Shown piece after piece: positions 3,801 to 32,282 of a DNA stretch of 47,319 bases; the first letter of the stretch is position 1, and the number at the start of each line of letters is the position of its first letter. The stretch lies in the sequence record NC_042046.1, one strand, 5' to 3'. The stretch is from Escherichia phage C119. Under the pieces are notes generated by a model, which worked only from the letters and a program-made list of their open reading frames with translations, had not been told where the DNA came from and made no database searches. Both the position numbers and the translations under genes were made by a program.

Positions 3801-4331
3801 ATGATTAAGGTAAAAGACATAATTGATCTTATAAATGTTGATAGTGAAAGTGGGGTGATAACATGGAAGCTCAGGGATTCAGCGAGGCCTCAGTGGAATG
3901 CAAGGTTTGCCGGAAAGAGGGCAGGTAACGAGTTCCAGGTTAGAACTGGTGGAAAGTACAGAAGAATAAGGTTTACTGTTAACGGAGAGACGGCTACATT
4001 ATTGGAGCATAGGATGATCTGGGAATTTGTTAATGGTGAAATACCTGATGGGATGGAGATAGATCACATAGACAAAGACTCAACGAACAACTCAATATCA
4101 AACCTTAGGGTTTGCAACAGAGCTCAGAATAGCTCAAACAAGGATAGGCATGCTGACAATACATCTGGGTATAAAGGTGTATCATACTTTAAGCAAACCG
4201 ATAAGTTCAGGGCGAGAATAATGCATAATGGTAACGACATGCATATAGGTTACTTCGATACAGCTGAAGGCGCTCACCGGGCCTACATGTTAAAGCAGGC
4301 AGAGTTGTGCGGTGAGTTTGCTAGAGGGTAG
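3801..4331 (+). CDS. HNH homing endonuclease with AP2-like DNA-binding domain (copy 1)
   Basis: ATG 3801 after GGAGGGG RBS; motifs NGEIPDGMEIDHIDKD...NLRVCNRAQN (HNH) and SGYKGVSYFKQTDKFRARI (AP2-like); paralogous to ORFs at 21437 and 31791; free-standing between capsid and neck genes. Confidence 0.8.
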   Translation: MIKVKDIIDLINVDSESGVITWKLRDSARPQWNARFAGKRAGNEFQVRTGGKYRRIRFTVNGETATLLEHRMIWEFVNGEIPDGMEIDHIDKDSTNNSISNLRVCNRAQNSSNKDRHADNTSGYKGVSYFKQTDKFRARIMHNGNDMHIGYFDTAEGAHRAYMLKQAELCGEFARG

Positions 4332-4373
4332 CTATTGAGATATAATCAAACAATCGAAACAAAGGAGGAATAA

Positions 4374-4619
4374 ATGAAACTGTTACATAAAGGTGCTTGT
4401 GTTATCCGTCTTGGCGCAAAAGATTATCTTCCAGGCGACACTATCGAGGTTGAAGAGTTATCAGTTGGATTAAAGATTCTGGTAGCTGAAGGTAAGCTTG
4501 AGGTTGAGGATGACCACAAGGCAACTAAAGAAATCGAGCAGGAAGTTAAAGCCAAGGCTAAGCCCAAGAAGCAACCAAAGACTATTGATGAAGCTGAGAA
4601 TGGCGGCGACTACAAATAA
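4374..4619 (+). CDS. Hypothetical head/neck-region protein (81 aa)
   Basis: ATG with AAAGGAGG RBS; Lys/Glu-rich C-terminus; followed by a UUCG-tetraloop hairpin at 4626-4648. Confidence 0.6.
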   Translation: MKLLHKGACVIRLGAKDYLPGDTIEVEELSVGLKILVAEGKLEVEDDHKATKEIEQEVKAKAKPKKQPKTIDEAENGGDYK

Positions 4620-4663
4620 ACCAAAAGGGCGCTTCGGCGTCCTTTATTGTATGGAGATATCAC

Positions 4664-5065
4664 ATGAATGAAGAAGTAATTGCGTACATGCGCACGCTTT
4701 ACCCGCCTCTTAAGAGTCAGCCTGATGATGTTCTTAACGCATGGATTGAGGTAGCCAAGCTATTCATCTGCTTAGACAAGTTTGGTGACAAGCAGGTTCA
4801 GGCACTGGCATTCTACACTCTTCACTTGCTTAGCCAGGATATTGCACTTAAGACTGAGAATGATTCAAGCCAGACATCATCTGAGCGGGTTAAGTCCTAC
4901 TCACTTTCAGGCGAGTACACGATTAGCTACGATACAAGCACTGCCGCAGCTAGCTCATCAAACCTTGAGGAATCCTCATGGGGTAAGCTTTACATTGATT
5001 TGATGCGTCGCAAGGTTGGCCGCTGGGGCTTGATTACCTCTGGTGGGTCGAGGTGCTGCCGATGA
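4664..5065 (+). CDS. Head-tail connector / adaptor protein (133 aa)
   Basis: Position between capsid and tail genes; GGAGA RBS; stop overlaps the next start (ATGA). Confidence 0.5.
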   Translation: MNEEVIAYMRTLYPPLKSQPDDVLNAWIEVAKLFICLDKFGDKQVQALAFYTLHLLSQDIALKTENDSSQTSSERVKSYSLSGEYTISYDTSTAAASSSNLEESSWGKLYIDLMRRKVGRWGLITSGGSRCCR

Positions 5066-5430
5066 ATCATGCACTTTTGCAGCAGCAAATTAAGGCTGGT
5101 ATTAATCTCCTGTCAGATGGTGATGGAGTTTTCGAAGCTACGACACAGCCAGCCATCTCTATCGTTAATGGCTATGAAGTGCGCACACCAGGCACTTCCT
5201 ACACTGTGCGGGGTGTTATCCGTGAATTCAAAGCGAGAGACATTGATGGTGACATCATCAAATTCGGTGACCGTCGCGGAATTTTTACTGCTGATTCAGT
5301 TGTATCGGAAGGAGACCGCATCTACATTGACCAGGAAGCATACACAGTAATTGACCCTCGACCAGTGAAGCCAACTGGCACGGTAATCGCCTACAGGCCA
5401 GTATTGCGGAGGGCTGCAACTTATGGCTAA
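5062..5430 (+). CDS. Head closure / head-tail joining protein
   Basis: Translationally coupled (ATGA overlap at 5062-5065) in the neck gene run; alternative GTG start at 5053. Confidence 0.5.
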   Translation: MNHALLQQQIKAGINLLSDGDGVFEATTQPAISIVNGYEVRTPGTSYTVRGVIREFKARDIDGDIIKFGDRRGIFTADSVVSEGDRIYIDQEAYTVIDPRPVKPTGTVIAYRPVLRRAATYG

Positions 5431-5851
5431 TGACGTTGTTAGTTTCAGGAACTCAATTAACGCATGGATTGATGGAGTCACGGAGGGTGTAGAATTGATT
5501 GTGGAAGGCACATTAACCAAGGCTGCCAACGACATCGTTAAGCTATCTCCCGTTGATACTGGTCGATTTAGAGGTAACTGGCAGGCTACTGGCAACTCAC
5601 CAGCTGCGCAGTCACTGAATAATTACGACCCTGACGGAAATGAGACTCGAAACTCTCTTCGTAGGCAGATCTACGCACTCGCCAGTGATAACAATACGAA
5701 CGTAATTTACATTACCAACCGCCTTGATTATGCGCAAGGTCTTGAGTTTGGTTCATCCAATCAGGCACCTTCTGGTGTTCTTGGAGTTGTCCAAAAGAGG
5801 CTTGGCCGTTACTTTGCTGAGGCGGTACAGGAGGCTAAACGTGCACTATGA
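5423..5851 (+). CDS. Neck / tail completion protein (HK97 gp10-like by position)
   Basis: ATG 5423 after GGAGGG; 142 aa; coupled with flanking genes. Confidence 0.45.
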   Translation: MANDVVSFRNSINAWIDGVTEGVELIVEGTLTKAANDIVKLSPVDTGRFRGNWQATGNSPAAQSLNNYDPDGNETRNSLRRQIYALASDNNTNVIYITNRLDYAQGLEFGSSNQAPSGVLGVVQKRLGRYFAEAVQEAKRAL

Positions 5852-6239
5852 AATGATGGTTGCAGCAAGGAAACTGGTTAGTGATGCGGCAGTTGATATT
5901 GCTGGCAGTCTACCAGTTGCTTACGAGAACTGCGGATTCACGCCACCCAAAAACGGAAGTTCATGGTTGAAGTTTGATTACACGGAGGTTGATAGTGTGA
6001 CATGGGGATTGCAGCGAACATGCAGGTATTACGTAGGCATGGTTCAGGTCTCTATATTCTTTTCACCAGGTGAGGGGACTGATAGACCTCGCCAATTGGC
6101 TGGGCGATTGTCAGAAGCTTTCGCCGATGGTACAATGCTTGACAGCGGATACATTTATGAAGGCGGATCCGTATTTCCTCCAGTGAAATCGCAATCCGGC
6201 TGGTTCATTCCTGTCCGATTCTACGTACGTATGGATTAA
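5841..6239 (+). CDS. Tail terminator-like protein
   Basis: GTG 5841 six nt after GAGG (the ORF track extends to 5724, probably too far upstream); immediately precedes the major tail protein gene. Confidence 0.4.
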   Translation: MHYEMMVAARKLVSDAAVDIAGSLPVAYENCGFTPPKNGSSWLKFDYTEVDSVTWGLQRTCRYYVGMVQVSIFFSPGEGTDRPRQLAGRLSEAFADGTMLDSGYIYEGGSVFPPVKSQSGWFIPVRFYVRMD

Positions 6240-6253
6240 TTAAGGAGATTTAC

Positions 6254-6904
6254 ATGGCCCATCTCAGCAATGGCACACAAATTTTTTTGCAAGGCTCTAA
6301 ATCTGAATCGGTAGCCGTAACGGCTATCACTAACGCAGCTCAGCCAGTTATGACGGTAGCTGACGCTTCAACTTTCGCAGCTGGTGACTTCATTGTTGTT
6401 GAGTCATCTTCATGGTCTAAACTTTCAGAGAAACAGTTGCGAGTAGTTACATCAACGGATACAACAATTACCGTTGAAGGCATTGACACTACTGACCCGC
6501 TTCAGTTCCCAGCTGGCGGAACGGCATCGATCTACAAGGTTCTTACCTGGTATGAAATGCCTTGTGTTCAAGACGTTTCAACTGATGGCGGAGAGCAGCA
6601 GTTCGTTACTTATCAGTGCCTGGCTGATGACCGTGAGCAGCAGATTCCAACTTATAAGTCAGCGGTAAACACGACCTATACGTTTGCTCACGAGTTCACC
6701 AACCCGATCTACCCGGTACTCCGTAACTACGACGAGTCTGGCGCGCTGATTGCGATTCGTGCATACGTTCCTAAAGCTGGCGAAGTTCGACTTTGGACTG
6801 GCACTATCGCGTTTAACGAAACTCCAAACGTTTCCGTTAACGAGATCGAAACTGTATCCGTAGCAATTACGGTACGTGGACGCTATAGCTTCCTGGCTGC
6901 ATAA
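6254..6904 (+). CDS. Major tail protein
   Basis: ATG 6254 with AAGGAGA RBS; 216 aa; directly upstream of the chaperone/tape-measure genes; strong terminator follows at 6910-6935. Confidence 0.65.
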   Translation: MAHLSNGTQIFLQGSKSESVAVTAITNAAQPVMTVADASTFAAGDFIVVESSSWSKLSEKQLRVVTSTDTTITVEGIDTTDPLQFPAGGTASIYKVLTWYEMPCVQDVSTDGGEQQFVTYQCLADDREQQIPTYKSAVNTTYTFAHEFTNPIYPVLRNYDESGALIAIRAYVPKAGEVRLWTGTIAFNETPNVSVNEIETVSVAITVRGRYSFLAA

Positions 6905-6909
6905 CAATC

Positions 6910-6935
6910 AAGCCCCTTCACAGGGGCTTTTTTTA
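6910..6935 (+). terminator. Rho-independent terminator after major tail protein gene
   Basis: agccccttcacaggggct hairpin followed by T7. Confidence 0.75.
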
Positions 6936-6977
6936 TGTTATAATTTCAACTCAAACAAACACGAGAGGATTATTTAA

Positions 6978-7292
6978 ATGGCGAAATTCAAATTAAAATT
7001 AGGCGCGCTCCCTGATTTCAAGCTTCCGGTTAAGTTCCAGATGATCAACGGCGAGGAAGCTGAGGTTATCTTCAATGCCAAGCACCGTAAGGCTAAGGAG
7101 ATTCAGGAAGTATTCCAGACCGAAGGCCTTAAGGATTTTGACTTTGTTAAAGAGATTTGCAGCGGCTGGAACCTTGAAGAAGAATTTAACGACGAGAACA
7201 TCGAAGAGCTGGTATCTCTGTTCCCCGCATCCGTTCTGGCACTGACTAATGCTTACATGCAAGCTCTGGCGGGCCAGCGCGCAAAGGTCTAA
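6978..7292 (+). CDS. Tail assembly chaperone (lambda gpG-like)
   Basis: ATG 6978 with GAGAGGA RBS; 104 aa acidic protein immediately upstream of the tape measure gene. Confidence 0.7.
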   Translation: MAKFKLKLGALPDFKLPVKFQMINGEEAEVIFNAKHRKAKEIQEVFQTEGLKDFDFVKEICSGWNLEEEFNDENIEELVSLFPASVLALTNAYMQALAGQRAKV

Positions 7293-7609
7293 AGCGCGCA
7301 GTATATCTACAGTATCAAAGAGAGCCAACGGACGCCGAACTTGAAGCCATTGGAATGCGGCGTTCCGATTACGAAGATGAGGAGCCAGAGGAGTTACACT
7401 TCGATGATGACATGATGCTGGCATGGACTGTTTATCAGGCAGCTTCAACTCAATGGCGTGTAGGTATGAACGGCGCTACCGGAATAGATTATTCAGTACT
7501 CCCTTTCCTCTTTGATGTGTATAATGTCAAGGACAAAGAGATGACTTTAAATGACTTGCGAATACTGGAGTGCAAAGCACTTGAGATGATGCAAGTAAGG
7601 CAAAAATAA
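7250..7609 (+). CDS. Tail assembly chaperone frameshift extension (gpT-like), probably expressed as a G-T fusion by -1 frameshift
   Basis: The -1 frame is open from 7250 through 7609 and overlaps the last 40 nt of the gpG-like ORF; candidate slip site at GCA AAG G (7281-7287); no good independent RBS for the ATG at 7355. Confidence 0.55.
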   Translation, partial: CLHASSGGPARKGLKRAVYLQYQREPTDAELEAIGMRRSDYEDEEPEELHFDDDMMLAWTVYQAASTQWRVGMNGATGIDYSVLPFLFDVYNVKDKEMTLNDLRILECKALEMMQVRQK

Positions 7610-7633
7610 CCTCCCTTTGTGGAGGTTTTTTTA
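7609..7633 (+). terminator. Hairpin plus T-tract between chaperone and tape measure genes
   Basis: cctccctttgtggagg followed by T7. Confidence 0.5.
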
Positions 7634-7643
7634 TGGAGGTTAC

Positions 7644-10600
7644 ATGGCAGAATTTGCAGGTATCACACTTGGCGTTGACGTTCGCCAGGTTGACCAGGGC
7701 ACAAAGTCCCTGCAAGAATTTAAACGTGCCAATGAACAGGCGGCAGCTGGAGTTAGCGAGTTCGTTAATGCTGAGCTGGTTGCGAAGAATCAGGCTCGCG
7801 ACACTGCAAGGTATCTTTCTGAGCAGAGAAGTGCTTTTCAGTCGCTTCAGTCTGCAATTGATCCAACAGCTTCAAAATTGCGAAAACTTCAAGATGCAGC
7901 AAGTTCTCTTGATAAGGCCTTCTCCGCAGGGGTTGTTCCAGAGGCTGAGTTTTACAGGCTTGGTGAAGCATTAGAAACGCAAACAAATAGGTTAATAAGG
8001 TCTAGGTCAGCATTAACTGAGGAGGGTAGGGCGGCTATAGAAGCTGCAAAAAATAAAGAGTCCGCTGAGAGGCAAGCGCAATCATTTATTAGGTCGCTTC
8101 AAGCGCAGGCTGATGCAGCGACATTAAGTAGGGATGAGTTCTTAAAGTTAAGGGCGGCACAGCTTGGAGTTAGCGATCAGGCAGCACCAATAATAGATAG
8201 AATAACACAGGCATCAAGTAACAATACTAACGCTATAGCAAATCAAAGTAGGGCGTTTCAGGCGGCTGGGATATCGGCAGGTCAGTACAATCAGGCCTTA
8301 AGGTTCCTTCCTGTACAGATCAATGATATCACCAGCTCGATTGCTAACGGTATGCCTTTATTTATGGTGCTTACCCAGCAAATACCGCAGATTACAGATT
8401 CATTTGGTGGATTTTCAAATACATTATCAGCTGCGCAAGGTGCAGTTATAGATTATGTATCATCAATAGGAGAGCTGAGAAGTTCATTTGCTGATGTTAA
8501 GACTCTTGGTGATGAGGCTATCTTAAGGTTTGGTCGTGCTGCAACTATATTTGGTGGCGCGATAGTTGCTTCATTAGCTGTTCTTGGTAAAGCCGCTTAC
8601 GACTCATTTATTGAGGTTAGGCAACTTAATAACGCAATAATTGAAACTGGAAGGTCGTCGACTTTATCAGTTGCCGCTATCAAGGATTACGCTGATCAGC
8701 TAAATGAAACATCAAGGGCAACAAAAGGTTCTATTGGTGACATTTACCAGTCGCTAGTATCAAACGGAAGGCTTACTGTTAGTCAGATTAACTTAATCGC
8801 TAAGTCTGTTGCTAACCTTTCAGCTGTTAGTTCAAGGTCTGCGGAATCAATAATATCTGACTTTGATAAGATAGCAAAAGATCCAGTTAAGGGGCTGATA
8901 GAGTTAGATAAGCAATTTAACTTTCTTAGCGAAGGGCAGTTGACCCTAGTTAACAACCTAAAAGAAACGGAAGGGCAAACAGCAGCAGTAACAGCAGCTT
9001 TAGAAATATTTGCAGCTAGAAATGAGTCAGTTACAAAGCAGATTGAAGGCTCGCTTACACCTCTTGAATTGGCTTGGGGCGATTTCCGTAAGTTCGTTTC
9101 AGACACATGGGATGCTATAGGTGACAGGACTATAGGAGCTCTAAACCTATTTACTGACGTTATAGCTGCGACTATTGAGCGAATAAGACTGATAATTGGC
9201 ACTGGCGACAAGCTAATAAATGATTTCGTAATACGCGGAATAGAGGCGTTACAAAAGATACCAGGAGCATCTGGCGTTGGTAATGGAATAGCCGAACAAC
9301 TAAGGAAGGATAATGACGCAATAGAAAAGGAAAACATAAGGCTAGCTAAATCTATCGCTGATAGGGATGCAAGGGTTCGCAGGGGCGAGACTGGTTACTT
9401 GAGTGTTGGAGAGGGTTCAGAAAGTCAAACTGGAACTTCTGATAGAGATTCAGAATCAAGAAGAAAGGCTTTGGCCGATGAGATTAAAGCAATTGAGGAG
9501 AGAAGTAAAAAGACAAAATCTGGAGCAAAAGAAGAGAGGGATTTGACTATAAGTTATGAGTCTGGCGTTCTAGCTCTTCAGGCTCAGCTTAAGGTTCTTC
9601 AGGAGCACCGCCAGATTAGTGATGTTATCAGTAACGAACGCAAGCAGCTTTTTGCGGAGGAAGCTAAGTTTGCAATCCTTAATGAAAGGCTTGCAGACGG
9701 AACCATCACAAAGCAACAGCGATCATTACTGTTGCAGCAGGATAAAATCTTAGGACTTGCTCGCGAGAAGGCTGAGATTGGCGACCAGATTGTGCTGCAA
9801 GAAAGGGCCAATAAACTTCTTGATGACAACATCAAGAAGACTCGGCAGATTAACGCTGAAGCGGCATCAATTAGTGTTGGAGCAGGATTATCTCAGCGCG
9901 AAGCGGAAAGGCGGCGTGAGTTGGCGGCGCTAGAAGCCCAGCAAATTTCTAAAGGTGGCTCCGTAGATGACACTGACTTCCAGGCTTTACTTCAGGCTCG
10001 TCAGAATTTCTACAATCAGGAAGATGCATTACGTGGTAACTGGCTGGCTGGCGTTAAATCTGCGTTTGCTGAGACGGCTGATGAATTGGCAAACTTTAAT
10101 CAGATTGGTTCCGAGCTAGCCATGAGTGCCTTTAACGGATTGACTGACCAGATAACAAACCTGGTAACTACTGGAGAAGCTAGCTTCCGTGAGTTTACCG
10201 CATCGATTCTGAAGCAGATTGCACGCATTGCAACGCAGCTACTTTTAATTAAGGCGATTGAATCAACCATCTCCAGTTTTGGCGGTAGTGGTGGTGCAAT
10301 TGGCTCTATTGGTAGCGCATTTGGTTTCGCTTCTGGCGGTTATACTGGAAACGGTGGTAAGTACGAGCCAGCTGGCACGGTGCATAAAGGTGAATTCGTC
10401 TTTACGAAGGAGGCAACCTCAAGGATTGGCGTTGATAACCTTTATAAGTTAATGCGCGGATACGCAAATGGTGGAGTGGTTGGTGCTGGTCCTGGCTATG
10501 CGACTGGCGGGCTTGTTGGTGGAAGTAACGTTAATGTTGGTGGAGTGAATGTTACCGTTCAGACAGGTCTTGGCGGTGGTGGCGGTAATGACGCTAAACA

Positions 10601-10697: not shown

Positions 10698-10728
10698 TAA
10701 ATGGGGCTTCGGCCCCTAAGGATTTTAA

Positions 10729-11079: not shown

Positions 11080-11151
11080 ATAGCACTAATTGCTAAACAG
11101 AAATACCAAGGAAGGTTTACAATTAAAAAACTTAAACAAGAGGTGATTGAT

Positions 11152-13509: not shown

Positions 13510-16500
13510 ATGGCACAAATGGTTAAACAAACAACGAGGTTATATGATATGGCCGATTTGCCAAAGATTTATGGAAGCAAGGGTGGTAGCAAGAAGCCGC
13601 ACACACCTGTAGAGCAAGAAGATAACCTGATTTCACTAAACAAGATTAAGGTGCTACTGGCTGTAGCTGATGGAGAGGTTGATTCTAGTTTCTCGCTCAA
13701 GGATGTTTACCTTGCTGACGTTCCGGTGCAAAACCAGGATAACTCATTCAACTATGAAGGTGTTACGGCAGAGTTTAGGTCTGGTACTCAGTCGCAGGAT
13801 TACATCGCAGGACTAGATGGCGCAGCTTCAGAGATTCAGGTTAGTCGTGAAATCAATAATGACACACCTTATATCATCGCAGTCAACAACAGTCAGCTAT
13901 CAGCAATTCGAGTCAAGCTGTTCTGGCCTCGACTCGTTAAGCAAGAAGAGAATGGAGATTTAAATGGCACAACATGTGAATATGCAATCGATTTATCAGT
14001 TAATGGCTCAGCGTACACTGAGTATATCAGAGGCGTGGCTAACGGTAAAACTACAACAGGTTACGACCGCAGTATCAGGGTTAACTTACCAGCCGAGTTT
14101 AGCAGCGCTCTTGTTCGTATTAGGAAGTTAACGCCAGACTCAACAAATAGCACCCTGGTTAACGGGATGCAGATCACAACCTATCAGGAAGTAATCGATG
14201 CTAAATTCCGCTACCCTCTTACGGCACTTGTTTACGTGGAGTTCAGTTCTGACCTGTTCCCTAACGGGATCCCAACTATAGCCATTAAGAAAAAGTGGAA
14301 ACTTATCCGCGTACCGACAAACTACAATCCAGAGACAAGGGCTTATAGCGGCACATGGAATGGAACTTTTAAAATGGCATGGTCTGACAACCCGGCCTGG
14401 GTTTTATATGATCTGGTGGTTAGTCAGCGCTACGGATTGGATCAGCGAGAGCTTGGTGTAGAGATTGATAAGTGGGGTCTGTATGAAGCAGCGCAATTCT
14501 GCGACCAGATGGTTCCTGATGGTAAGGGTGGAATGGAGCCGCGATATACTTGTAACGTTGTCATTCAGCAGAAAGTGGAAGCGTATCAGCTTATTCGTGA
14601 CATCTGTTCTATCTTCCGCGGTTTAACCTTCTATGATGGTGAGCAAATCGGGATTGTTGTAGACAGGCCGCGCCAGCCAAGCTATGTGTTCACTAATGAT
14701 AACGTTGTTGATGGATTGTTTAACAGGACATTCTCTAGCGACAAGAGCCTTTACACGACAGCCAACGTTCAGTTTGATGACGAGCAGAACAACTACCAGC
14801 AGGATGTCGAGCCAGTATTCGACTTAGAAGCAACACGCCGATTTGGTTACAACCCTGTAGACTTGACTGCAATTGGCTGCGTAAGGCGAAGCGAGGCTAA
14901 CCGTCGCGGGCGTTGGTTGCTGAAAACAAACCTTCGCAGTGAAACGGTAACGTTCACAACTGGCCTCGAAGGCATGATTCCTATGATTGGTGATGTAATT
15001 GCCGTTAATGACCAGGCTTGGTCAAGCAACTACACATTAAACCTTTCGGGTCGAATTGTTGAAGCTACAGGTTTGCAGGTGTTCGTGCCATTCGCTATTG
15101 ATGCTGACCCTGGCGACAGGATTTTAATCAACAAGCCAGATGGGAGCCCAGAGTACAGGACTATCGCTTCAGTATCTGCCGATAAGTTGACGCTTGAACT
15201 GAATACAGCATTCAGCTTCACACCTCAGCCGGATACGGTATTTGCAATCGACAAGCAGAATCTGGCGTTGCAGCAATACGTTGTGACAGGAATTCAAAAA
15301 GCAAACACGGACGGCGAGGATTCATTCCAGTACAGCATCACTGCGGTGCAGTATGACCCGAACAAGTATGACGAGATTGACTATGGTGTGAATATTGACG
15401 ACAGGCCAACAAGTATCGTTGACCCTGACAGGATTTTACCACCTGAAAATATCACCGTTACTAGTTACAGCAAGGTAGTTCAGGGCTTAAGCGTTGAGAC
15501 GATGGTTATTGGTTACGACAAGGTGCAGTATGCGAAAACATACAACGTACAGTGGCGCAAGAATAACGGCAACTGGATTAACGTACCTGAGACAGCTAAT
15601 ACCGAGGTTGATATTGAAGGCATTTACGCTGGCATCTACGACGTCAGGGTTCGCGCCGTAACTGACCAGAAATCAGTGTCGGCATGGTCAGATATCACGA
15701 CAGTTAGCCTGACTGGCAAGATTGGGGAACCTTCGGAGCCGCCTGTAATTACGGCTTCTGATGATGAGGTTTTCGGGATTAGGGTTAAGTGGGGCTTCCC
15801 TACTGACTCAGCTGATACCGCTTACACCGAGCTTCAGCAGGTTCCTGATAATGGTGACGGAACATATACACCGGAGAACGCGTCACTGCTTACGCTGGTT
15901 CCGTATCCTCAATACGAATATTGGCACACCACTCTACCAGCAGGTAACGTGAGGTGGTACAGGGCCAGGATTATTGACAGGATAGGTAACGTATCTCCGT
16001 GGACTGATTTTGTCAGAGGTATGGCATCCGATGATGTAAGTGCGATCATTGGTGACATCAAGGTTGATATCGAAAACTCTGATGGTTACAAGTATCTTCT
16101 CCAGAACGCCATTGATGCAAATACTGACATCCAGAATCAGGCCGAAGCTATAATCGAGAACGCCCTGGCAAATGATACTGACGTACGCGTTATGACAAAG
16201 GAGAATCTTAACAGGAAGGCGGAATATCGCCAGGCAGTAAGTTTGATTGCTGATGAAACTCAGGCCCGTGTGGACGCTCTCACGCAGCTTAAAGCGCAGA
16301 TTGATGATGAGATTGTTGGTCAGATTACGACAATTGAAACCGCACTTGCTACGGAGACCGAAGCCAGGGCTACAGCTGATACTCAATTAAGCTCAAGGCT
16401 TGGTGATAACGAGGCGGCTTTGAATCAGAAGCTTGACTCTTATGCCACGGTCGAAGGTGTTGGTGTTCAGTACGGCGTTAAGCTCGGCCTGAAGTACAAT

Positions 16501-21395: not shown

Positions 21396-21436
21396 ACTAA
21401 ACGGGGCTTCGGCCCCAAAATCAAACGAGATATGAA

Positions 21437-21931
21437 ATGAATTGGGACAAATACTTTGATATCGTGGATGGTAAGCTGGTGTGGAAGTATAGAGAAGAGA
21501 TGCGGCCACAGTGGAACGCAAGATATCAAGGAAAAGAGGCAGGAGCGATAAGGAATGGATACCTTCAGACCGAAATCAATGGGAAGTGTTATTTTTGCCA
21601 TAGAATTATGTGGGAAATGATTAACGGTCGTATACCGGATGGAATGTGCATAGACCACTTGAATCACAAGAGAGATGATAACAGGATTGAAAATCTTAGA
21701 GTTGTATCTCATCAAGATAATTGCAAGAATCAGAGCTTGCGATTGAAAAATAAATCAGGAGTATCGGGAGTTTACTGGAATAAGAAAGCAAATAAGTGGC
21801 TAGCTCAAATAAGTATAAAAGGAAAAAGAAAGCATGTTGGTTTCTTTTTATCAATATCTGACGCTGAGAATGCGATAAAACAAGCAAGAAAAGAAAATCT
21901 TTACCACGAAAATCATTGCTCTAATATTTGA
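21437..21931 (+). CDS. HNH homing endonuclease with AP2-like domain (copy 2)
   Basis: NGRIPDGMCIDHLNHKRDDNRIENLRVVSHQDNCKNQ (HNH) and SGVSGVYWNKKANKWLAQI (AP2-like); N-terminus MNWDKYFDIVDGKLVW parallels copy 3. Confidence 0.8.
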   Translation: MNWDKYFDIVDGKLVWKYREEMRPQWNARYQGKEAGAIRNGYLQTEINGKCYFCHRIMWEMINGRIPDGMCIDHLNHKRDDNRIENLRVVSHQDNCKNQSLRLKNKSGVSGVYWNKKANKWLAQISIKGKRKHVGFFLSISDAENAIKQARKENLYHENHCSNI

Positions 21932-21954
21932 AATAAACAAAAAGAGGTATCAAA

Positions 21955-22377
21955 ATGCACGTAATTACAGGTCAGATTCGTAAGGCTCCTTTCACTAAAG
22001 ATGGTCAGAACGCCAAGGGTAACTGGAAGATGTACGCTATCGAAATGAGCGAATCTTATAAAACACGAGATGGAGAGCGTAAGTATAGTAATTATCGAGC
22101 TACCTTCTTTGCTAGCGAGGCGCAAATTAGCTGGTATGACGAAGCATTTCAGGAAGGAAAAGTTATCTCTGTGAGCGGCGATTCATTAGCGGTTAATGAG
22201 CGCGAACATAATGGCAAGACATATATTACGCTTGAGTTGCAGAATCCTCGATTGATGTTTAGTCAGCGAGGAGGTGAATCAGAACAGCAGCAGCAGCGAC
22301 AACAAGCTCAACAGCAACAGAGACAGCAGCCGCAGCAACAAAGCCGATTTAGTGATGAAGATGATATTCCGTTTTAA
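21955..22377 (+). CDS. ssb: Single-stranded DNA-binding protein
   Basis: OB-fold-sized N-terminal domain, Gln-rich linker and canonical acidic C-terminal tail ...FSDEDDIPF. Confidence 0.85.
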   Translation: MHVITGQIRKAPFTKDGQNAKGNWKMYAIEMSESYKTRDGERKYSNYRATFFASEAQISWYDEAFQEGKVISVSGDSLAVNEREHNGKTYITLELQNPRLMFSQRGGESEQQQQRQQAQQQQRQQPQQQSRFSDEDDIPF

Positions 22378-25126: not shown

Positions 25127-25178
25127 GTTATTTCTCCTATTTGATAGATGAAACCTATTGTATCAGATTAAATGCAAT

Positions 25179-25198
25179 AAAAAACCCTCCGAAGAGGG
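25179..25198 (-). terminator. Rho-independent terminator downstream of primase gene (minus strand)
   Basis: ccctccgaagaggg hairpin; T-tract on the minus strand (plus strand aaaaaa at 25179-25184). Confidence 0.55.
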
Positions 25199-25204
25199 TG
25201 ATTG

Positions 25205-26128: not shown

Positions 26129-26140
26129 TTTTATTTAATC

Positions 26141-26173
26141 CAATAAAAAGGTTGTACCGATTATGGCACAACC
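26141..26173 (-). terminator. Rho-independent terminator downstream of the HTH regulator gene (minus strand)
   Basis: ggttgt...acaacc hairpin followed by a T-tract on the minus strand. Confidence 0.6.
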
Positions 26174-26180
26174 TTAATTT

Positions 26181-26654
26181 TTACTCTTTAGCTTTTCGTG
26201 CTTCTTCTCTTTCTTTCTTAACCTTTCGCCATGATTTACGCTGCGGCTTGGTTGCTAACTCAGCTTCTGTAACAACTCGAAGCATCTGACGCTTCTTGCA
26301 TCGCAGTGTTAGAGGCTTGCCGTTACCGTCGAACTGTAAATCAGGTCGGCAGAATGTAGCCCTGAACCCCTCGCCAGTTCGCTTATATCGATTATGCGCA
26401 AGCTGTGCGCCGCGAGCTGAAATCATTCCCCGCTTACACCATTCTTCTACAGCCTGGCGCGTAACCTTTAGCTGCTTAGCTAGATTGGCCTTGCTGCCGT
26501 AGAAGTCCAATACAATCTCAAGGCGCGCCCTTAATCCCGCTCTCACTTCATCCTTTAGTACATAGTAACCTGATGGACGCTTACGCGGCTTCTTGTCTTC
26601 TGTGCGAATTGTTCCGTTGTTACCATTAAGAGTACGCTTGTCAATTGAATCCAT
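26181..26654 (-). CDS. Helix-turn-helix DNA-binding protein (putative transcriptional regulator)
   Basis: HTH-like segment LAKQLKVTRQAVEEWCKRGMIS; very basic C-terminus; divergently oriented to the helicase operon. Confidence 0.55.
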   Translation of the reverse strand: MDSIDKRTLNGNNGTIRTEDKKPRKRPSGYYVLKDEVRAGLRARLEIVLDFYGSKANLAKQLKVTRQAVEEWCKRGMISARGAQLAHNRYKRTGEGFRATFCRPDLQFDGNGKPLTLRCKKRQMLRVVTEAELATKPQRKSWRKVKKEREEARKAKE

Positions 26655-26665
26655 TTTCTCACCTC

Positions 26666-26746
26666 AATAGCACTTTTTGTTAAACATTGGTTTATATGGC
26701 TGTTATTATATCGTCAATCGAACGAACATTAAAGGCATTTGATATT
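26666..26746 (+). promoter_or_regulatory. Conserved cassette copy upstream of helicase operon
   Basis: aatagcactttttgttaaa followed by tttatatgg (-10-like) and leader tcaatcgaacgaaca resembling the cassette leader. Confidence 0.5.
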
Positions 26747-28690
26747 ATGGAAAACCGATTGAAAACAATACAAAAACAGATTGAAGAATTGGGCGAAGAT
26801 AAGATTAAAGAGATTCAAACTAAATTCACCTCTTCTAACTGTATGGTTCCGTATAGCTATCAGTGTGTTATGTACAATGAGATTGCAAAGCGCATTAGTC
26901 GCTATGAGCATCCATTTATCGCAATGGCTTCAGTTTCTGCTGGTAAGACTCTGGTTTTTGGTATGGTTGCTAAGCGTTGCTCTGAGCTTGGCTTGCCTAT
27001 GCTTGTTCTTGCTCGTCAGGCAGAGCTGGTTAGCCAGAATGCTTCTGAGATTTCTGATTACGGGGTTCCTAACTCCATTTATTGCTCTGGGCTTGGAATA
27101 AAATCATCTTATTTCCCTGTGGTGGTTGGCTCTGAGGGCACAGTAGTTGGCGGGCTTAAGAAGTCACTTGGCGATTTCTGTCCTGCGGTAGTTGCTATTG
27201 ATGAGTGTCACCATATTGATGACCAGGACATAGCGGAGGCAATTGATAACAATGAGACTGCGCAACAGGCATCAGATAAGGGGCGTAGCCAGTATACGGT
27301 CATCATCCTGACTTTAATGGAGCGCTGCCGTGCTAAGTATGGCAAGAATCTTCGTATCTTTGGACTGACTGGTTCTCCTTTCCGTGGAACTACGCCAATA
27401 GTTGTTGAAAACAAAAAGGAGTTGGGATTTTGGCGTGAGACGGTCACAAATATCGATACAAACTACCTGGTAGAGTTCGGTTCCGTGGTTCCGACAAACT
27501 TTGGTGCTACTGATGGCGTTGGTTACGACCTGTCAGAGTTTGATGCATCATCTGAAGATGGTGTTCAGGATTACACTAAAGCCCAGCTTGAAGCCATGGA
27601 TAAAAAGATTCAGGCATCTGGAACAATGACAGCGGAGATAATGAAGAAAGTATGGCTTGCCGCGAAAGACAGGAATGGAGTTCTGGTAACATGCGCAGGT
27701 GAGCGCCATTGCCACGAAGCCGCAAGTTACCTTCCTGAAGGTGAAAAGTTCTGCATTATAACTGGAAAGACTGGCGAGAAGCAGCGCAAGGAGTTGCTTG
27801 ATAAGTGCTTTAGCGGGGAGATTAAATATTGCTTTCAGGTTCAGGCGCTAACCACTGGCGTAAATGTGCCTACATGGGATACAAGCGTTATTCTGCGTAA
27901 GATCGGTAGCCTTACGCTCCTGGTTCAGCTACTTGGTCGAGGAATGCGTAAGCTTAAGAAGCTCCATGAAGATAAAGGAATGGTAAAGAATGACCATTTG
28001 GTACTGGACTTCGCAGGAACGATGGACTCTATGGCATCATTGTACTTCAATCCAATTCTTGAGCAGGCTCAATATCAGCTACGAAAGAGTAATGGCAAGG
28101 AGACTAAGCAGTGTCCAGTATGCGGAACAGAGAACAGCTTCTTTGCTCGACGTTGCATGCATATTGATGAGAATAATAATCGCTGCGAATATTTCTGGGT
28201 TAGTCGCACATGTGAAGACCAGAAAGACCCACGAACCGGAAAGGTTATCGTTAAAGGCTGTGGAGTTCAGAATGACGTTGCAGCTAAGATTTGTAGGGGT
28301 TGCGATTGCACTTTGCTTGATCCAAATCTCAACTTAAGCGGCAAACATTACCGCAAGAACGACTGGTTTGATGTTGTTGACTTTAAGGTTGGGCTAACAA
28401 AGAACCAATCAGGAATCATCTACAACTACATCCTTGATGATGGCATGGGTGGGACATTCAAAGCTCATGAGGTTTTCTTTGTAGAGTCTGGCCATCGAGT
28501 ATGTAAAACGCTCTGGTTGAACAATGGAATTAAAGGTCACGTAGTCGACATGAACGCTAAGCGATATATGGCTGCATATCGCAATGCTCGCAAGATTATG
28601 GAGTATGCGCAGTACATCCATGCCCCTAAGAGGGTAACTCACCGCAAGACCGCTAAAGGTGGCGATAATATTGCTAATAAGGAGTTCTAA
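26747..28690 (+). CDS. Superfamily 2 (DEAD/DEAH-type) helicase with C-terminal Cys-rich zinc-ribbon region
   Basis: Walker A SAGKTLVFG, DEAH-like VAIDECHHID, C-terminal CPVCGT...RRCMH...CRGCDC; ATG 26747 (ORF track begins at 26687). Confidence 0.75.
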   Translation: MENRLKTIQKQIEELGEDKIKEIQTKFTSSNCMVPYSYQCVMYNEIAKRISRYEHPFIAMASVSAGKTLVFGMVAKRCSELGLPMLVLARQAELVSQNASEISDYGVPNSIYCSGLGIKSSYFPVVVGSEGTVVGGLKKSLGDFCPAVVAIDECHHIDDQDIAEAIDNNETAQQASDKGRSQYTVIILTLMERCRAKYGKNLRIFGLTGSPFRGTTPIVVENKKELGFWRETVTNIDTNYLVEFGSVVPTNFGATDGVGYDLSEFDASSEDGVQDYTKAQLEAMDKKIQASGTMTAEIMKKVWLAAKDRNGVLVTCAGERHCHEAASYLPEGEKFCIITGKTGEKQRKELLDKCFSGEIKYCFQVQALTTGVNVPTWDTSVILRKIGSLTLLVQLLGRGMRKLKKLHEDKGMVKNDHLVLDFAGTMDSMASLYFNPILEQAQYQLRKSNGKETKQCPVCGTENSFFARRCMHIDENNNRCEYFWVSRTCEDQKDPRTGKVIVKGCGVQNDVAAKICRGCDCTLLDPNLNLSGKHYRKNDWFDVVDFKVGLTKNQSGIIYNYILDDGMGGTFKAHEVFFVESGHRVCKTLWLNNGIKGHVVDMNAKRYMAAYRNARKIMEYAQYIHAPKRVTHRKTAKGGDNIANKEF

Positions 28691-29079
28691 TGGTTAAGGT
28701 TTTTCACGACAAAACAAGCACGGACAAGGCTAAAGAGGTTGTTCACCAAATAAATTCAATAGCTTGGGTTCGCCACAACCATCCAGAGATATTTGCTTTT
28801 CACGTGAAGAATGAAGGTCTCAAGTCTATCGGCACAGCAATGAAGGACAAGCAGGAGGGAGTAATTAAGGGTGTATCAGATATTCTACTGATTGGACCAA
28901 ATGGCTTTGCCGCAATAGAGCTTAAGCGAGCAATAAAATCAGATAGCAAGGTTTCAAAGGAGCAAAAGGAGTTCCTGGAAAAGGTATCAGAAACAGGAGG
29001 TTACGCAGCAATCTGTTATGGGTTTGAAATGTTTAAGTTGGCAATTACAGATTATCTATCAAATAGCACGAATTGCTAA
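28690..29079 (+). CDS. VRR-NUC domain nuclease
   Basis: Motif DILLIGPNGFAAIELKRA...KEQKEFLEKV is the PD-(D/E)XK variant typical of VRR-NUC; TAATG overlap with helicase; stop lies inside the cassette motif. Confidence 0.65.
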   Translation: MVKVFHDKTSTDKAKEVVHQINSIAWVRHNHPEIFAFHVKNEGLKSIGTAMKDKQEGVIKGVSDILLIGPNGFAAIELKRAIKSDSKVSKEQKEFLEKVSETGGYAAICYGFEMFKLAITDYLSNSTNC

Positions 29080-29137
29080 AGAGATTTCGCAAGGATGCGA
29101 TATAGTTACTTCATCGAAACGAAGAGAGAGAAACAAA
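29061..29137 (+). promoter_or_regulatory. Conserved gene-boundary cassette (reference copy)
   Basis: aaatagcacgaattgctaaa - 12 nt - ggatgcgatatagttacttcatcgaaacgaagagagag then ATG; dyad TAGCA/TGCTA; -10-like TATAGT. Confidence 0.6.
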
Positions 29138-29332
29138 ATGACTACTATCTACACTGAAAAGCTGTACAAGTCACGCAAAACTGGTTATGAATATGAATTA
29201 GCAATCACCCCTGAGGGTTATATTCTTGATGATGGAGACGGTTACTCATTCGAAGTTAGCCCAACATACAAAGATGATTTAGAGACTGTTAAAAACGCAT
29301 TCGGCGAAAAATTTGATGAGGTGTCAGAATAA
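29138..29332 (+). CDS. Hypothetical protein (64 aa)
   Basis: First ATG after the cassette leader. Confidence 0.6.
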   Translation: MTTIYTEKLYKSRKTGYEYELAITPEGYILDDGDGYSFEVSPTYKDDLETVKNAFGEKFDEVSE

Positions 29333-29550
29333 TGAAATTAACCTTTGATAAGCAATGGGAACTCTTTCAGGCAATGGTGGCGCAGGAGTTGAGTAAAGCT
29401 GGATATAAAAATGATGTTTGGGATTTAGCTTGGTGTCTTGATTATAGTTTCGAAGAGGATTATCTGAACACTGATATCGAAACATGGCGCGACCGAATGA
29501 TTGCTGATATCGAAGAAATGAAGAAAGATTGCCCGGAGGATTTTTCATGA
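29332..29550 (+). CDS. Hypothetical protein (72 aa, acidic)
   Basis: ATG 29332 coupled to the upstream stop; GAGG RBS. Confidence 0.55.
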   Translation: MKLTFDKQWELFQAMVAQELSKAGYKNDVWDLAWCLDYSFEEDYLNTDIETWRDRMIADIEEMKKDCPEDFS

Positions 29551-29747
29551 TTACTGCGACTTGCGTAATGACGAACGGCTCATTCACCCTGCTCAATGAG
29601 TATGAATTCAAACTTGACCCGATTAATGACCAGGTTGAAATAGTTAGCGATGACGGATTTGCATGGAAGTTACATAATGAATTTGATGGGTACTACGGGT
29701 GTAATGATGCGAAAGGTAAGCATGTAAGTTTTCTTGTTTATGAGTAA
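29547..29747 (+). CDS. Hypothetical protein (66 aa)
   Basis: ATG 29547 after GGAGG; overlaps upstream stop. Confidence 0.5.
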   Translation: MITATCVMTNGSFTLLNEYEFKLDPINDQVEIVSDDGFAWKLHNEFDGYYGCNDAKGKHVSFLVYE

Positions 29748-29821
29748 ATAGCACTTTTTGTTAAAACTAAAATACAAGGATGGATTATATTAATTACATC
29801 AGCAAATGAGAGGGTTAAGAG

Positions 29822-29947
29822 ATGAAAATTATAGACAAAGAGATGTTCGAGATTGCGCAGTCTTTCGCAAATGACGCAGTTAAGACTGGATCTGAATATT
29901 GCTGGATTTGCGCTCGAGAAGCTTTAAAAATGGCTTACGGCCTATGA
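29822..29947 (+). CDS. Hypothetical small protein (41 aa, CxxC)
   Basis: ATG 29822 after cassette copy at 29746-29766 and leader catcagcaaatgagaggg; contains CWIC; ATGA overlap with the next ORF. Confidence 0.4.
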   Translation: MKIIDKEMFEIAQSFANDAVKTGSEYCWICAREALKMAYGL

Positions 29948-30183
29948 TAGTTGAAACCGGACGCGCCGCTGTATGGGCGCATTGTGGAGAGGCGGGATTG
30001 CAGGATGACATCAAGATGATAGGTAAATACTTTGATATTGATGACATATCTGTAGTTTTCAATGGGAAGTTTAGTTATATGAACCAGCGGCCACGCAAGT
30101 ATGTAAGAGTTCCAGCAACGCCTAGCCTCGCAATGTATCGTGAGGAAGGTAAGAAGATATTTAAGAAAGGTGCGAAGAAATGA
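29944..30183 (+). CDS. Hypothetical protein (79 aa)
   Basis: In-frame ATG 29944 of the 29899 ORF, coupled to the preceding small ORF. Confidence 0.45.
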   Translation: MIVETGRAAVWAHCGEAGLQDDIKMIGKYFDIDDISVVFNGKFSYMNQRPRKYVRVPATPSLAMYREEGKKIFKKGAKK

Positions 30184-30437
30184 ATTTACCTGGTCTGGAT
30201 TTTGATGAGAGTAAGTATCAGGTTGTGTTTTTTGGTGAGAAGCCTTATCGGAAGATTCCTTTCTCTGAGTGGATTCCTCCGGACTACCTCGATGTACTGG
30301 TGCAAATTGAGATTGGTAAGGCTGAGTTGATGTACTACTCACCTGGCTGCAATATGATGATGCCTAGTGAGTATTCTCCAGCAATTGCTGCGCTTGAAAC
30401 TGAGTTTCTTGATTACTGGCTAAAAGAAGTTAAATAG
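30180..30437 (+). CDS. Hypothetical protein (85 aa)
   Basis: ATGA-coupled ORF; stop followed directly by a cassette motif. Confidence 0.5.
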   Translation: MNLPGLDFDESKYQVVFFGEKPYRKIPFSEWIPPDYLDVLVQIEIGKAELMYYSPGCNMMMPSEYSPAIAALETEFLDYWLKEVK

Positions 30438-30505
30438 CACTTTTTGTTAAAACACATCGCCATGGATGGCGTATAGTGTGTTCATCGAAACGAGAGACGA
30501 TTCAG

Positions 30506-30574
30506 ATGAAAACATTACTACCGTTGATGGCTATGCCATTAACCTTTATAATCATGTACTTCATAATCTGCTAA
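30506..30574 (+). CDS. Possible 22-aa hydrophobic micropeptide (MKTLLPLMAMPLTFIIMYFIIC)
   Basis: First ATG after the cassette leader ttcatcgaaacgagagacgattcag, the position other cassette-driven genes occupy. Confidence 0.3.
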   Translation: MKTLLPLMAMPLTFIIMYFIIC

Positions 30575-30588
30575 CAGGAAATTAAATA

Positions 30589-31725
30589 ATGTCTATAGCT
30601 AAAATCACCAACGAAGAGTTAAAGCAAGAACTGGCTAACGGTATGACTAACAAGGCAATCGCAGAGAAGTACGGTATGAATATTCGTAACGTAGAGCTGC
30701 GTCGCAGCAAGTTGGCTAAGGCTGGGGATGGTCACGGTCGCGATGTGAGTAACCTAATTCCTCAGGGCTACATGGTTAAAGGTGTATCTAGCCTTGTTGA
30801 TAATGATGGCAATGTGAAGTTGCAATGGGTTAAGTCCTCTATTGATGCAGAGAAGCTTGAGGAGATGATGAATCAAGCGCGAGAGGCATTCTCTAGCGAG
30901 CTACCAAAAGAAAAAGCAGTTAAATCTGAAGGTCTGAATTTTGATGAAGATACTTTAGCTATGTATCCAGTATTTGACCTTCACATTGGCGCAATGGCCC
31001 ACAAGCATGAGTGCGGAGAAAACTACGACACAGCAACGGCAGAGAAAGTAATGAACGATTATTTTGACTACGCCGTACAGAAATCTCCAAATTCAAAGAA
31101 TGCTGTACTAGTGCTAGGAGGTGATCTGCTTCATTATGATTCTTTGGAAGCCAAAACTCCAGCCAGTGGTCACATCCTGGACAGTGACAGTCGCTACGCC
31201 AAGATTGTTTATGTTTGCATTCGAGCGGTTCGCCGCGCAATTCGAAACATGCTTAGCAAACATGAAAACGTAGAGGTTAAAGTTATATCTGGTAATCATG
31301 ATGAAAGTGGTATGGTTTGGTTGCGGGCTGCGCTTGCTGCATTTTATGAGGAAGAGCCACGCGTTAGTATTGATGTTAGTCCCGCGGCAATGATGGTAAC
31401 TAAGTTTGGTTCTACAATGCTTGGTTTCACTCACGGGCATCAAATGCGTAAAGCTGATACTCGCCTTTCGGTTATGGCTACTGACTGGCGACGTGACTTT
31501 GGTTTAAGTGATTATGTATACACCCACTCAGGCCACTGGCATTCACAGAAGATTACAGAGACAAATCTTGGTATTGATGAGGTTCATGGTCAGCTTGGTT
31601 CACCAGATGCATATAGTGCGAATGGCGGGTGGCGCTCACAAAGGCAGGCTGCGGTAATCATATATCATAAAGAGTTTGGTGAGGTTGGTCGTTTTATCTG
31701 TCGCCCAGAAATGTTTAATAAATAG
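30589..31725 (+). CDS. Calcineurin-like metallophosphoesterase with N-terminal HTH-like segment
   Basis: Phosphoesterase motifs DLHIG, GGDLLHYD, GNHDE, GH.H (FTHGHQ); N-terminal EELKQELANGMTNKAIAEKYGMNIRNVELRRSKL resembles an HTH. Confidence 0.6.
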   Translation: MSIAKITNEELKQELANGMTNKAIAEKYGMNIRNVELRRSKLAKAGDGHGRDVSNLIPQGYMVKGVSSLVDNDGNVKLQWVKSSIDAEKLEEMMNQAREAFSSELPKEKAVKSEGLNFDEDTLAMYPVFDLHIGAMAHKHECGENYDTATAEKVMNDYFDYAVQKSPNSKNAVLVLGGDLLHYDSLEAKTPASGHILDSDSRYAKIVYVCIRAVRRAIRNMLSKHENVEVKVISGNHDESGMVWLRAALAAFYEEEPRVSIDVSPAAMMVTKFGSTMLGFTHGHQMRKADTRLSVMATDWRRDFGLSDYVYTHSGHWHSQKITETNLGIDEVHGQLGSPDAYSANGGWRSQRQAAVIIYHKEFGEVGRFICRPEMFNK

Positions 31726-31743
31726 CACAAATAGTCAAGAAAC

Positions 31744-31770
31744 TACCCGCGAAAGCGGGTGTTTTTGTTT
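31744..31770 (+). terminator. Hairpin plus T-tract upstream of HNH copy 3
   Basis: acccgcgaaagcgggt followed by gtttttgttt. Confidence 0.55.
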
Positions 31771-31790
31771 CACACAACTGAGGAGGTAAT

Positions 31791-32282
31791 ATGAATTGGA
31801 ATGATTTTCTCGAATATAGAGATGGAAAGCTTTACTGGACAGATCCACACTCAACAAAATTTAAGCCAGGGGATGAGGCTGGATGTAGGCATCATAGGGG
31901 TTATCATTATATAAGGAGATATAAAACCACGATGTCAAGGCATAGGATAGTATGGACAATGTTTAATGGAGAGATACCGGAAGGCATGGAGATTGATCAC
32001 ATAGACCATGACGTTGAGAATGATCGGATTGAAAACCTAAGAATGGTTACAAGGAGGCAGAACAATCAAAACAAAAAGCTAGATGAAAGAAATACTAGCG
32101 GACATGTTGGGGTTAGTTGGAACAAGAAGGCAAACAAATGGAGAGCAATGATAGGTATAAAGGGTAATGACGGGAAGCGGAAAACGGTATATGTTTATTA
32201 TGGTGACTCTTTCGACGACGCGGTATTGGCAAGGAAGAAAGCTGAATCTGAATACTCATTTCATGAAAATCACGGAAAATAG
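31791..32282 (+). CDS. HNH homing endonuclease with AP2-like domain (copy 3)
   Basis: NGEIPEGMEIDHIDHDVENDRIENLRMVTRRQNNQNK and SGHVGVSWNKKANKWRAMI; GAGGAGG RBS; stop TAG is the TAG of a cassette motif. Confidence 0.8.
   Translation: MNWNDFLEYRDGKLYWTDPHSTKFKPGDEAGCRHHRGYHYIRRYKTTMSRHRIVWTMFNGEIPEGMEIDHIDHDVENDRIENLRMVTRRQNNQNKKLDERNTSGHVGVSWNKKANKWRAMIGIKGNDGKRKTVYVYYGDSFDDAVLARKKAESEYSFHENHGK

Follow-up and report, generated by a model that had tools for sequence, protein, structure and literature searches.

The HNH-AP2 family, represented in phages, cyanobacteria and ciliates, is said to have been defined as a family of homing endonucleases by Magnani et al. 2004. Here we examine three of its members in Escherichia phage C119 (phiC119; sequence record NC_042046.1), using a stretch of 47,319 nucleotides (nt) that we refer to as the window, and propose that they are probably free-standing HNH(HNN)-AP2 genes of the homing-endonuclease family that reside as selfish inserts in intergenic gaps. 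By both sequence and fold, their best match of solved structure is I-HmuI from Bacillus phage SPO1 (PDB 1U3E), a site-specific nicking enzyme which shares with them an N-terminal beta-hairpin region, the HNH_3 His-Me finger and a D-H...N...N constellation at equivalent positions; on this analogy nicking is also their likely chemistry. I-HmuI differs in being encoded by a group I intron and in bearing a helical C-terminal DNA-binding part of the NUMOD/IENR type, whereas the C119 genes are free-standing and their products are predicted to end in an AP2 fold; sequence identity to I-HmuI is about 23%. The free-standing Seg and Mob homing endonucleases of T4-type phages, whose genes spread with co-conversion of flanking markers, are comparable in their intergenic, intron-less and polymorphic placement beside conserved essential genes, although Seg enzymes are of the GIY-YIG type, Mob enzymes are HNH proteins without an AP2 domain, and both come from another phage lineage. 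A further parallel is provided by the “HNN-AP2” genes of the Xanthomonas phages Xp10, OP1 and Xop411, and we know of no enzyme of this family that has been biochemically characterised. As described in PMC2248197, these are alike in their two domains, small size and want of zinc-binding cysteine dyads, and in occurring as several dispersed copies per genome at positions that vary between related phages; the same study lists T1, Rtp and T5 as having several HNH-AP2 homing endonucleases each, T1 and Rtp being relatives of C119. Since the Xanthomonas genes have no conserved flanks, their insertion was judged there to be sequence-independent (PMC2248197), unlike the situation reported below, where different lineages have made repeated use of three intergenic slots in the Rogunavirinae. 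Finally, the IPA-HNH genes of the Vibrio phage ICP1 combine HNH at the N-terminus with AP2 at the C-terminus and are located at boundaries of genetic exchange, but their products are too divergent for a match to Pfam HNH_3 (Barth et al. 2023, PMC10448857), a model that the present proteins match strongly.

All three C119 proteins have exact counterparts in RefSeq, each named “HNH endonuclease [Escherichia phage C119]”. A preliminary description of this DNA had located them correctly: the open reading frames (ORFs) translate without internal stops to the lengths given in Table 1, and both motifs quoted in it, NG(E/R)IP(D/E)GMxIDH...N..I.NLR for the nuclease and SGxxGVx(W/Y)xKxxxK(W/F)xAxI for the AP2 part, are real and align in all three copies, the latter with KF in copy 1 and KW in copies 2 and 3. 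The start of copy 1 at ATG 3801 has a GGAGGGG ribosome-binding site upstream; a GTG at 3765 would lengthen this ORF, but it falls within a terminator stem. The nuclease domains score 65.0, 66.3 and 72.9 bits (copies 1 to 3, respectively) against Pfam HNH_3 (PF13392; gathering threshold 24.8 bits), with E ~5e-18 to 2e-20, and all three proteins fall within PHROG 99 “HNH endonuclease” at E of about 1e-57. Residues D69, H70, N82 and N91 of copy 3 align to D74, H75, N87 and N96 of I-HmuI; an alignment that joins the three copies to 63 homologues from databases shows no variation at these four positions or at H51. At the sequence level the AP2 domain (PF00847) is recognised at 25.3, 29.0 and 21.2 bits (E = 2e-5 to 3.5e-4), under the gathering score of 33.3 bits; the only PDB entries matched by sequence are I-HmuI 1U3E for the nuclease part (E = 0.003) and, at a weak E of 0.15, 3IGM, an AP2 domain from Plasmodium. 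The fold tests concern copy 3, for which an AlphaFold model built on the above alignment (predicted local distance difference test score 93.7) displays nuclease strands at residues 66-70 and 83-87 and a helix at 88-93, and an AP2-type C-terminus with strands at 108-111, 116-124 and 130-138 and a helix at 141-154. A Foldseek search of the PDB with this model recovered I-HmuI 1U3E as the top match (E = 8.6e-4, probability 1.0) and next WRINKLED1 (7WQ5) and AtERF1 (1GCC), with root-mean-square deviations of 2.3-2.6 Å over 53-58 residues (probability 1.0); the C-terminal domain attains a template-modelling score of 0.64 normalised to 1GCC. The AP2 assignment is thus below the Pfam sequence cut-off and yet, for copy 3, passes the test of fold, so that the model supports it. 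None of the three protein sequences contains a CxxC zinc dyad; in this they match the HNN-AP2 subtype known from the Xanthomonas phages.

The likeness among the three copies is evidently far beyond chance (BLASTP identity 39-52% between copies), and the preliminary description had called them paralogous. This holds for membership in one family but not for origin by duplication: copy 1 is nearest to phiEB49 gp51 (53%), copy 2 to Sf12 gp22 (55%) and copy 3 to AHP42 gp46 (96%), and because each is thus nearer to the HNH gene of another phage than to its siblings, they are separate acquisitions and not recent duplicates. Copy 2 is known from this phage alone, its nearest relatives being 55% and 48-49% identical; a search of 50,697 phage records gave no relative above 55%, and one of 5.8 billion proteins gave no relative above 49%. 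The GC content of copies 2 and 3 is 0.37 and 0.39, respectively, against 0.44 for the genome. A family hidden Markov model (HMM) run on the six-frame translation of the window recovered exactly three HNH-AP2 genes; it revealed no additional HNH/AP2 copy, intact or degraded (best other E = 0.9), and neither did tblastn (best E = 0.1), nor were truncated remnants detectable with the same model. That the genes are free-standing, as had been claimed, is upheld by an Rfam search of the window that returned no group I or group II intron, and by flanking ORFs that are intact and collinear with those of relatives. A search for terminal inverted or direct repeats and target-site duplications gave only short repeats at chance level, none of which coincides with a junction of insert 1 or 2.

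We then examined the placement of the three genes in related phages. By megablast, C119 falls in the Rogunavirus group of T1-like Escherichia coli siphophages (Drexlerviridae), with window identities of 99.8% to phiJLA23, 99.3% to phiKP26 and 96% to Rogue1. The genes adjoining the inserts include the capsid (PF09950), DUF7444 and ERF (PF04404) genes, all above Pfam threshold, and a phosphoesterase with a weak Metallophos match; these identities agree with the annotations of relatives. Each of the three genes had been thought to interrupt an otherwise conserved gene run, a view that would be contradicted if all relatives had these genes in identical places. The comparison shows the opposite of such uniformity, every slot being polymorphic among the Rogunavirinae, with empty alleles defining inserts 1 and 2 and alternative occupants defining module 3.

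Slot 1 lies between the capsid and DUF7444 genes. Alignment to Jk06, Phleasolo and Sf12, where the slot is empty, and to Rogue1 and Sd1, where it is otherwise filled, places insert 1 between the T-run of the capsid terminator and the TATAAT/leader of the DUF7444 gene. In Jk06, Phleasolo (with its near-identical kin) and Sf12 the slot is a contiguous intergenic region of 92 base pairs (bp), which reads in order: capsid stop, ATAGCA motif, GC hairpin with T-run, TATATAAT, leader and ribosome-binding site. The two halves flanking copy 1 are therefore continuous in empty alleles, in agreement with the earlier suggestion of a split cassette, the coordinates of which (3729 and 4337-4373) were off by about 2 nt. 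The HNH-AP2 genes that fill the slot in Rogue1, Sd1 and phiEB49 share 34%, 44% and 53% identity with copy 1, respectively. The left flank differs with occupancy: HNH-bearing alleles share the variant ATAGCACTTTTTGA.. with stem AGCACCC, and empty alleles share ATAGCAATTATTGCT.. with stem (A/G)CCACCC. An independent assembly (Logan SRR28154160; L017) has the copy 1 ortholog in the same slot, and its capsid-HNH-DUF7444 block is 95% identical to the window as against 88% for the flanks. The 3' end of copy 1 contributes a TTGCTA that precedes the resident TATAAT by 17 nt (4318-4346), a 10/12 promoter match, and insert 1 may in this way restore or strengthen the DUF7444 promoter that the insertion split.

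Slot 2, between the Erf and ssb genes, is empty in Rogue1, AHP42, AHS24, Phagiculus and Phleasolo, and alignment with these five alleles set the bounds of insert 2. Its flanks match those of Rogue1 and AHP42 at 99.4-99.7% of positions (0.3-0.6% differing), except for a 45-nt tract immediately after the copy 2 stop, which has 19-20 mismatches as against 4-7 in the next 1200 nt (binomial P about 1e-33). From this contrast it appears that the arrival of copy 2 also brought in a foreign patch of 45 nt at its flank, a pattern which fits the co-conversion seen with Seg and Mob genes. The N-terminus of Ssb beside copy 2 (MHVITGQ) is of the AHS24/Phagiculus type. In e4/1c the slot is occupied by an unrelated HNH gene (27% identity), and AHS24, Phagiculus and Phleasolo carry an unrelated HNH gene in the adjacent exoVIII/Erf gap.

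Slot 3, between the phosphoesterase and a series of small genes, contains the same gene as copy 3 in AHP42 and AKS96 (96% identity at the amino-acid (aa) level), the region being collinear at 95.6%. Sf12 has another HNH gene here (37% identical), and Rogue1, Phleasolo and others have a 65-aa ORF that is not a nuclease; the possibility that the Rogue1 version is a decayed HNH/AP2 gene was considered and rejected, as it has no HNH, AP2 or Pfam similarity. Slot 3 thus shows alternatively filled alleles, with no fully empty one among the relatives compared. The 9-bp repeat that bounds module 3 is the start of the resident promoter cassette and not a transposon end. The hairpin at site 3 moves with the HNH module, whereas the one at site 1 is also present in relatives with an empty slot and hence belongs to the capsid gene rather than to the HNH gene. 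Accordingly, the earlier statement that copies 1 and 3 are each preceded by a hairpin terminator of their own is right as to the presence of terminator-like hairpins at both and as to the ownership of the second, but not the first.

Two close records deserve separate mention. phiKP26 (L001, NC_042038 / KC579452) and phiJLA23 (L002, NC_047740 / KC333879) are the closest relatives and ~100% identical elsewhere, but they were rejected as “empty” comparators in view of Ns, noisy bases and chimeric junctions at each HNH site, and no conclusion here rests on either. The damage, which also includes frameshifts, corresponds to window positions 3780-4339, 21431-22010 and 30874-32276. At site 2 of phiJLA23 the first 13 HNH codons are fused to ssb, with a length exactly that of the empty allele (259 nt); another garbled example in these records is a 1.4-kb gap ending at the right-hand HNH junction. 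Reference-guided mis-assembly over the insert is the likely source of these defects.

Table 1. Positions in the window of the three HNH-AP2 genes, the inserts that carry them and associated elements.
Feature	Position	Strand	Remarks
HNH-AP2 gene copy 1	3801..4331	+	176 aa; YP_009615840.1 “HNH endonuclease”; Pfam, PHROG and RefSeq
HNH-AP2 gene copy 2	21437..21931	+	164 aa; YP_009615862.1
HNH-AP2 gene copy 3	31791..32282	+	163 aa; YP_009615876.1; structure model
Insert 1	3780..4339	+	about 560 bp replacing about 10 bp (TTATATGGCT) of the empty allele
ATAGCAC-TTGACA motif and capsid-gene intrinsic terminator (cassette left half)	3730..3779	+	stem 3752-3769, T7 run
TATAAT and leader caaacaatcgaaacaaaggagg before DUF7444 gene (cassette right half)	4340..4373	+	
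Insert 2	21431..21941	+	about 511 bp between Erf stop/hairpin/leader (..AAATCAAACGAGA) and ssb ribosome-binding site
GGGGC-UUCG-GCCCC hairpin after Erf gene	21403..21416	+	also in empty alleles; + strand without T-run
Divergent tract, candidate co-converted/target-site region	21932..21976	+	covers ssb ribosome-binding site and codons 1-7
Module 3 (hairpin-type cassette and HNH gene)	31726..32276	+	phosphoesterase stop to next ATAGCAC promoter cassette
Terminator-like hairpin ACCCGC-GAAA-GCGGGT with TTTTTGTTT	31744..31770	+	stem 31744-31761, T-rich tail
Direct repeat AAATAGCAC, left copy	31720..31728	+	9 bp; includes phosphoesterase stop TAG
Direct repeat AAATAGCAC, right copy	32277..32285	+	9 bp; includes HNH copy 3 stop TAG; opens next promoter cassette

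Taken across relatives, slot 1 holds HNH genes of four lineages, slots 2 and 3 of two lineages each, and the genes that share a slot are 27-53% identical. Comparison of copy 1 with its L017 ortholog reveals 16 synonymous and 7 nonsynonymous differences, giving a ratio of nonsynonymous to synonymous rates (omega) of 0.10; for copy 3 and its ortholog in a second assembly (Logan SRR15275265; L018) omega is 0.06 at a synonymous divergence (dS) of about 1, and this ortholog is 82% identical in nucleotides as against 74-77% for the flanks. As judged from these substitutions, copies 1 and 3 are under long-term purifying selection. The L018 locus (3001-3493) comprises an HNH-only ORF of 108 aa and an out-of-frame AP2 part, with one extra A in the run AAAACAAAAAG; either gene decay or a homopolymer sequencing error may account for the split. 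Products gp115 and gp116 of ICP1 represent a comparable separation of HNH and AP2 by a frameshift (PMC10448857).

Other Rogunavirinae have further HNH-AP2 slots that are empty in the window, namely TerS/TerL, the gap between two minor tail genes, exoVIII/Erf and helicase/VRR-NUC, with occupants at 562-1077 and 15979-16467 of AHP42 (L004), 470-943 of L009 and 1480-2004 of L016; in all, this subfamily has at least seven recurrent HNH slots. The TerS/TerL genes of the window (42842-44922) have no adjacent HNH gene, and each of the three HNH genes is dispensable in relatives. A tRNA-Arg gene (anticodon CCT) is situated upstream of the small terminase gene at 42465-42540, as it is in Rogue1 and AHP42.

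The two-domain architecture, the dispensability of the genes, the reuse of their slots, the apparently foreign patch at one flank, the stronger conservation of gene than of backbone, the purifying selection, and the lack of transposon ends or introns together constitute the signature of homing genes, and it is on these grounds that we regard selfish insertion as the probable explanation. We know of no T1-like HNH-AP2 enzyme with a demonstrated cleavage, target site or transfer; for the present three proteins, we infer endonuclease activity, target sites and actual homing from the systems compared above. By analogy with these systems, the empty allele would be cut or nicked and then repaired by recombination from the carrier genome. 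In a mixed infection with a relative that lacks the gene, the AP2 and N-terminal domains would bind a long site near the empty gap, and the enzyme would nick or cut the bound site, much as I-HmuI nicks its own target. The phage RecE/Erf/Ssb recombination system would then repair the break with the HNH-carrying genome as the template, copying the gene and some of the flanking sequence into the recipient, while the carrier genome would be protected because the insert and the flanking substitutions change the site. Expression would probably depend on read-through or on weak local promoters just past the terminators, with low enzyme levels as the result.

The slots are set among copies of a repeated promoter cassette, which consists of ATAGCAC-nnn-TTGCTA, about 17 nt, TATAGT, CATCGAAACGA and a ribosome-binding site, on the same strand as the downstream gene. 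It occurs at about 16 intergenic sites, e.g. 11080, 18252(-), 20675, 29063, 29748 and 30434, and further at 32279, 37500(-), 38335(-), 40001 and 41117; ATAGCAC is observed 19 times against 7 expected, in intergenic position and gene-strand orientation. The -10 element of many copies is located within the loop of a dyad of the type GATGGgg/ccCCATC. A hairpin-bearing subtype at 3730(+), 31722(+), 36546(-) and 37500(-) combines terminator and promoter features in the order ATAGCAC, -35-like hexamer, GC hairpin (UUCG or GAAA loop) and T-run, and two of its four members are directly upstream of HNH genes (copies 1 and 3); the hairpins at 31744 and 36546(-) are near-identical (ACTACCCGC...GCGGGT). 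We also considered AATCAAAC, which lies no more than 15 nt from a junction of insert 1 (at 4344) and of insert 2 (at 21419), as a common target motif. It is enriched (9 occurrences against 2.7 expected), but lies on opposite sides of the two inserts; it was rejected in this role and is probably just part of the common leader.

Several observations weigh against homing as the account of these genes. Copy 3 and its AHP42 counterpart (L004, 35672-36163) differ at seven sites, all nonsynonymous, a pattern that, for all its small numbers, could signify recently relaxed (or diversifying) selection; in the same comparison omega is 0.09 for the phosphoesterase and 0.09-0.2 for the neighbouring genes overall. 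The surroundings of sites 1 and 3 are mosaic in general, so that the shifts in identity there are not specific to HNH genes, and the Ssb N-terminal variant seen beside copy 2 also occurs in AHS24 and Phagiculus with the slot empty and is not exclusive to HNH carriers. Furthermore, slot 3 has the non-nuclease 65-aa ORF in other phages and the 9-bp cassette-start repeat at its bounds, and recombination from cassette to cassette could move its modules without a nuclease.

The last point leads to the main rival to homing, nuclease-independent swapping, most plausible for slot 3: the HNH genes would be passive cargo, exchanged when homologous or microhomology recombination between the repeated ATAGCAC cassettes of co-infecting phages swaps their contents. 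The excess of intergenic, gene-strand ATAGCAC motifs, the enclosure of module 3 between direct repeats AAATAGCAC, the non-nuclease occupant of slot 3 in Rogue1 and Phleasolo and the hairpin-type cassettes ahead of copies 1 and 3 are all in accord with it. Nevertheless, we consider it unlikely, as the slots are mostly filled by HNH-AP2 genes of several unrelated lineages, purifying selection on a nuclease is hard to explain for inert DNA, and the ends of insert 2 have no cassette repeat.

Still less likely, in our estimate, is that the three genes are relics of past invasions which remain open while being inactive. Decay after fixation has been described for the HNN-AP2 genes of Xanthomonas phages (PMC2248197), the L018 ortholog of copy 3 is frameshifted, and a run of exclusively nonsynonymous changes such as that between copy 3 and AHP42 (7/7) has a probability of 0.005 if omega = 0.2. 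Against decay stand the three full-length ORFs with every invariant residue of the family retained, the long-term omega values of 0.06-0.10, and the want of truncated remnants in the window.

A distinct idea, on which we would place little weight, is that the enzymes, or their AP2 domains at least, recognise the shared cassette rather than a gene-specific site. It arises from the recurrence of HNH-AP2 genes less than 55% identical to each other in the same few slots, which are built from one repeated promoter/terminator cassette of ATAGCAC, a -35 element, a GC hairpin (UUCG or GAAA loop) and a leader. If true, an endonuclease gene could hop between non-homologous loci of a genome, and the promoter architecture of the phage would be linked to the spread of a selfish gene.

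The packaging HNH enzymes of the HK97 gp74 type belong to a different HNH subfamily, one with zinc-binding cysteines. The phiC119 genome was published in PeerJ in 2016 (PMC5028729) without consideration of gene mobility, and that paper ascribed, by analogy, a packaging role to ORF 27 (copy 2) and a repair role to ORF 41 (copy 3). That the enzymes have been domesticated to serve the phage, in packaging, repair, or the exclusion or degradation of rival phage or host DNA, would accord with these assignments, with the selection on copies 1 and 3 and with the position of copy 2 within the recombination module, but it is the least probable of the readings considered, since viable relatives with flanks 99-100% identical do without each gene, no HNH gene adjoins the terminase, the CxxC dyads are missing, and the papers cited in support of packaging and repair deal with other proteins.

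We thus return to selfish, free-standing homing-type genes as the preferred explanation. As such the finding is an ordinary one: the genes were already annotated, and previous publications describe both this family and the way in which its members behave as multiple, polymorphic copies in T1-like phages, an account with which everything found here agrees. Our additions are small, comprising defined junctions, the pattern of slot reuse, estimates of selection, and apparent assembly errors in two public relatives, and they correct the packaging/repair interpretation of the phiC119 paper. The apparent corruption of phiKP26 and phiJLA23 at mobile genes matters for the use of these records in comparative and taxonomic work, and the exact empty and occupied junctions are possible substrates for characterising a T1-like HNH-AP2 enzyme. 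In practical terms the value is modest; the HNH genes are harmless in candidates for phage therapy such as phiC119, yet they explain much of the difference in gene content from strain to strain.

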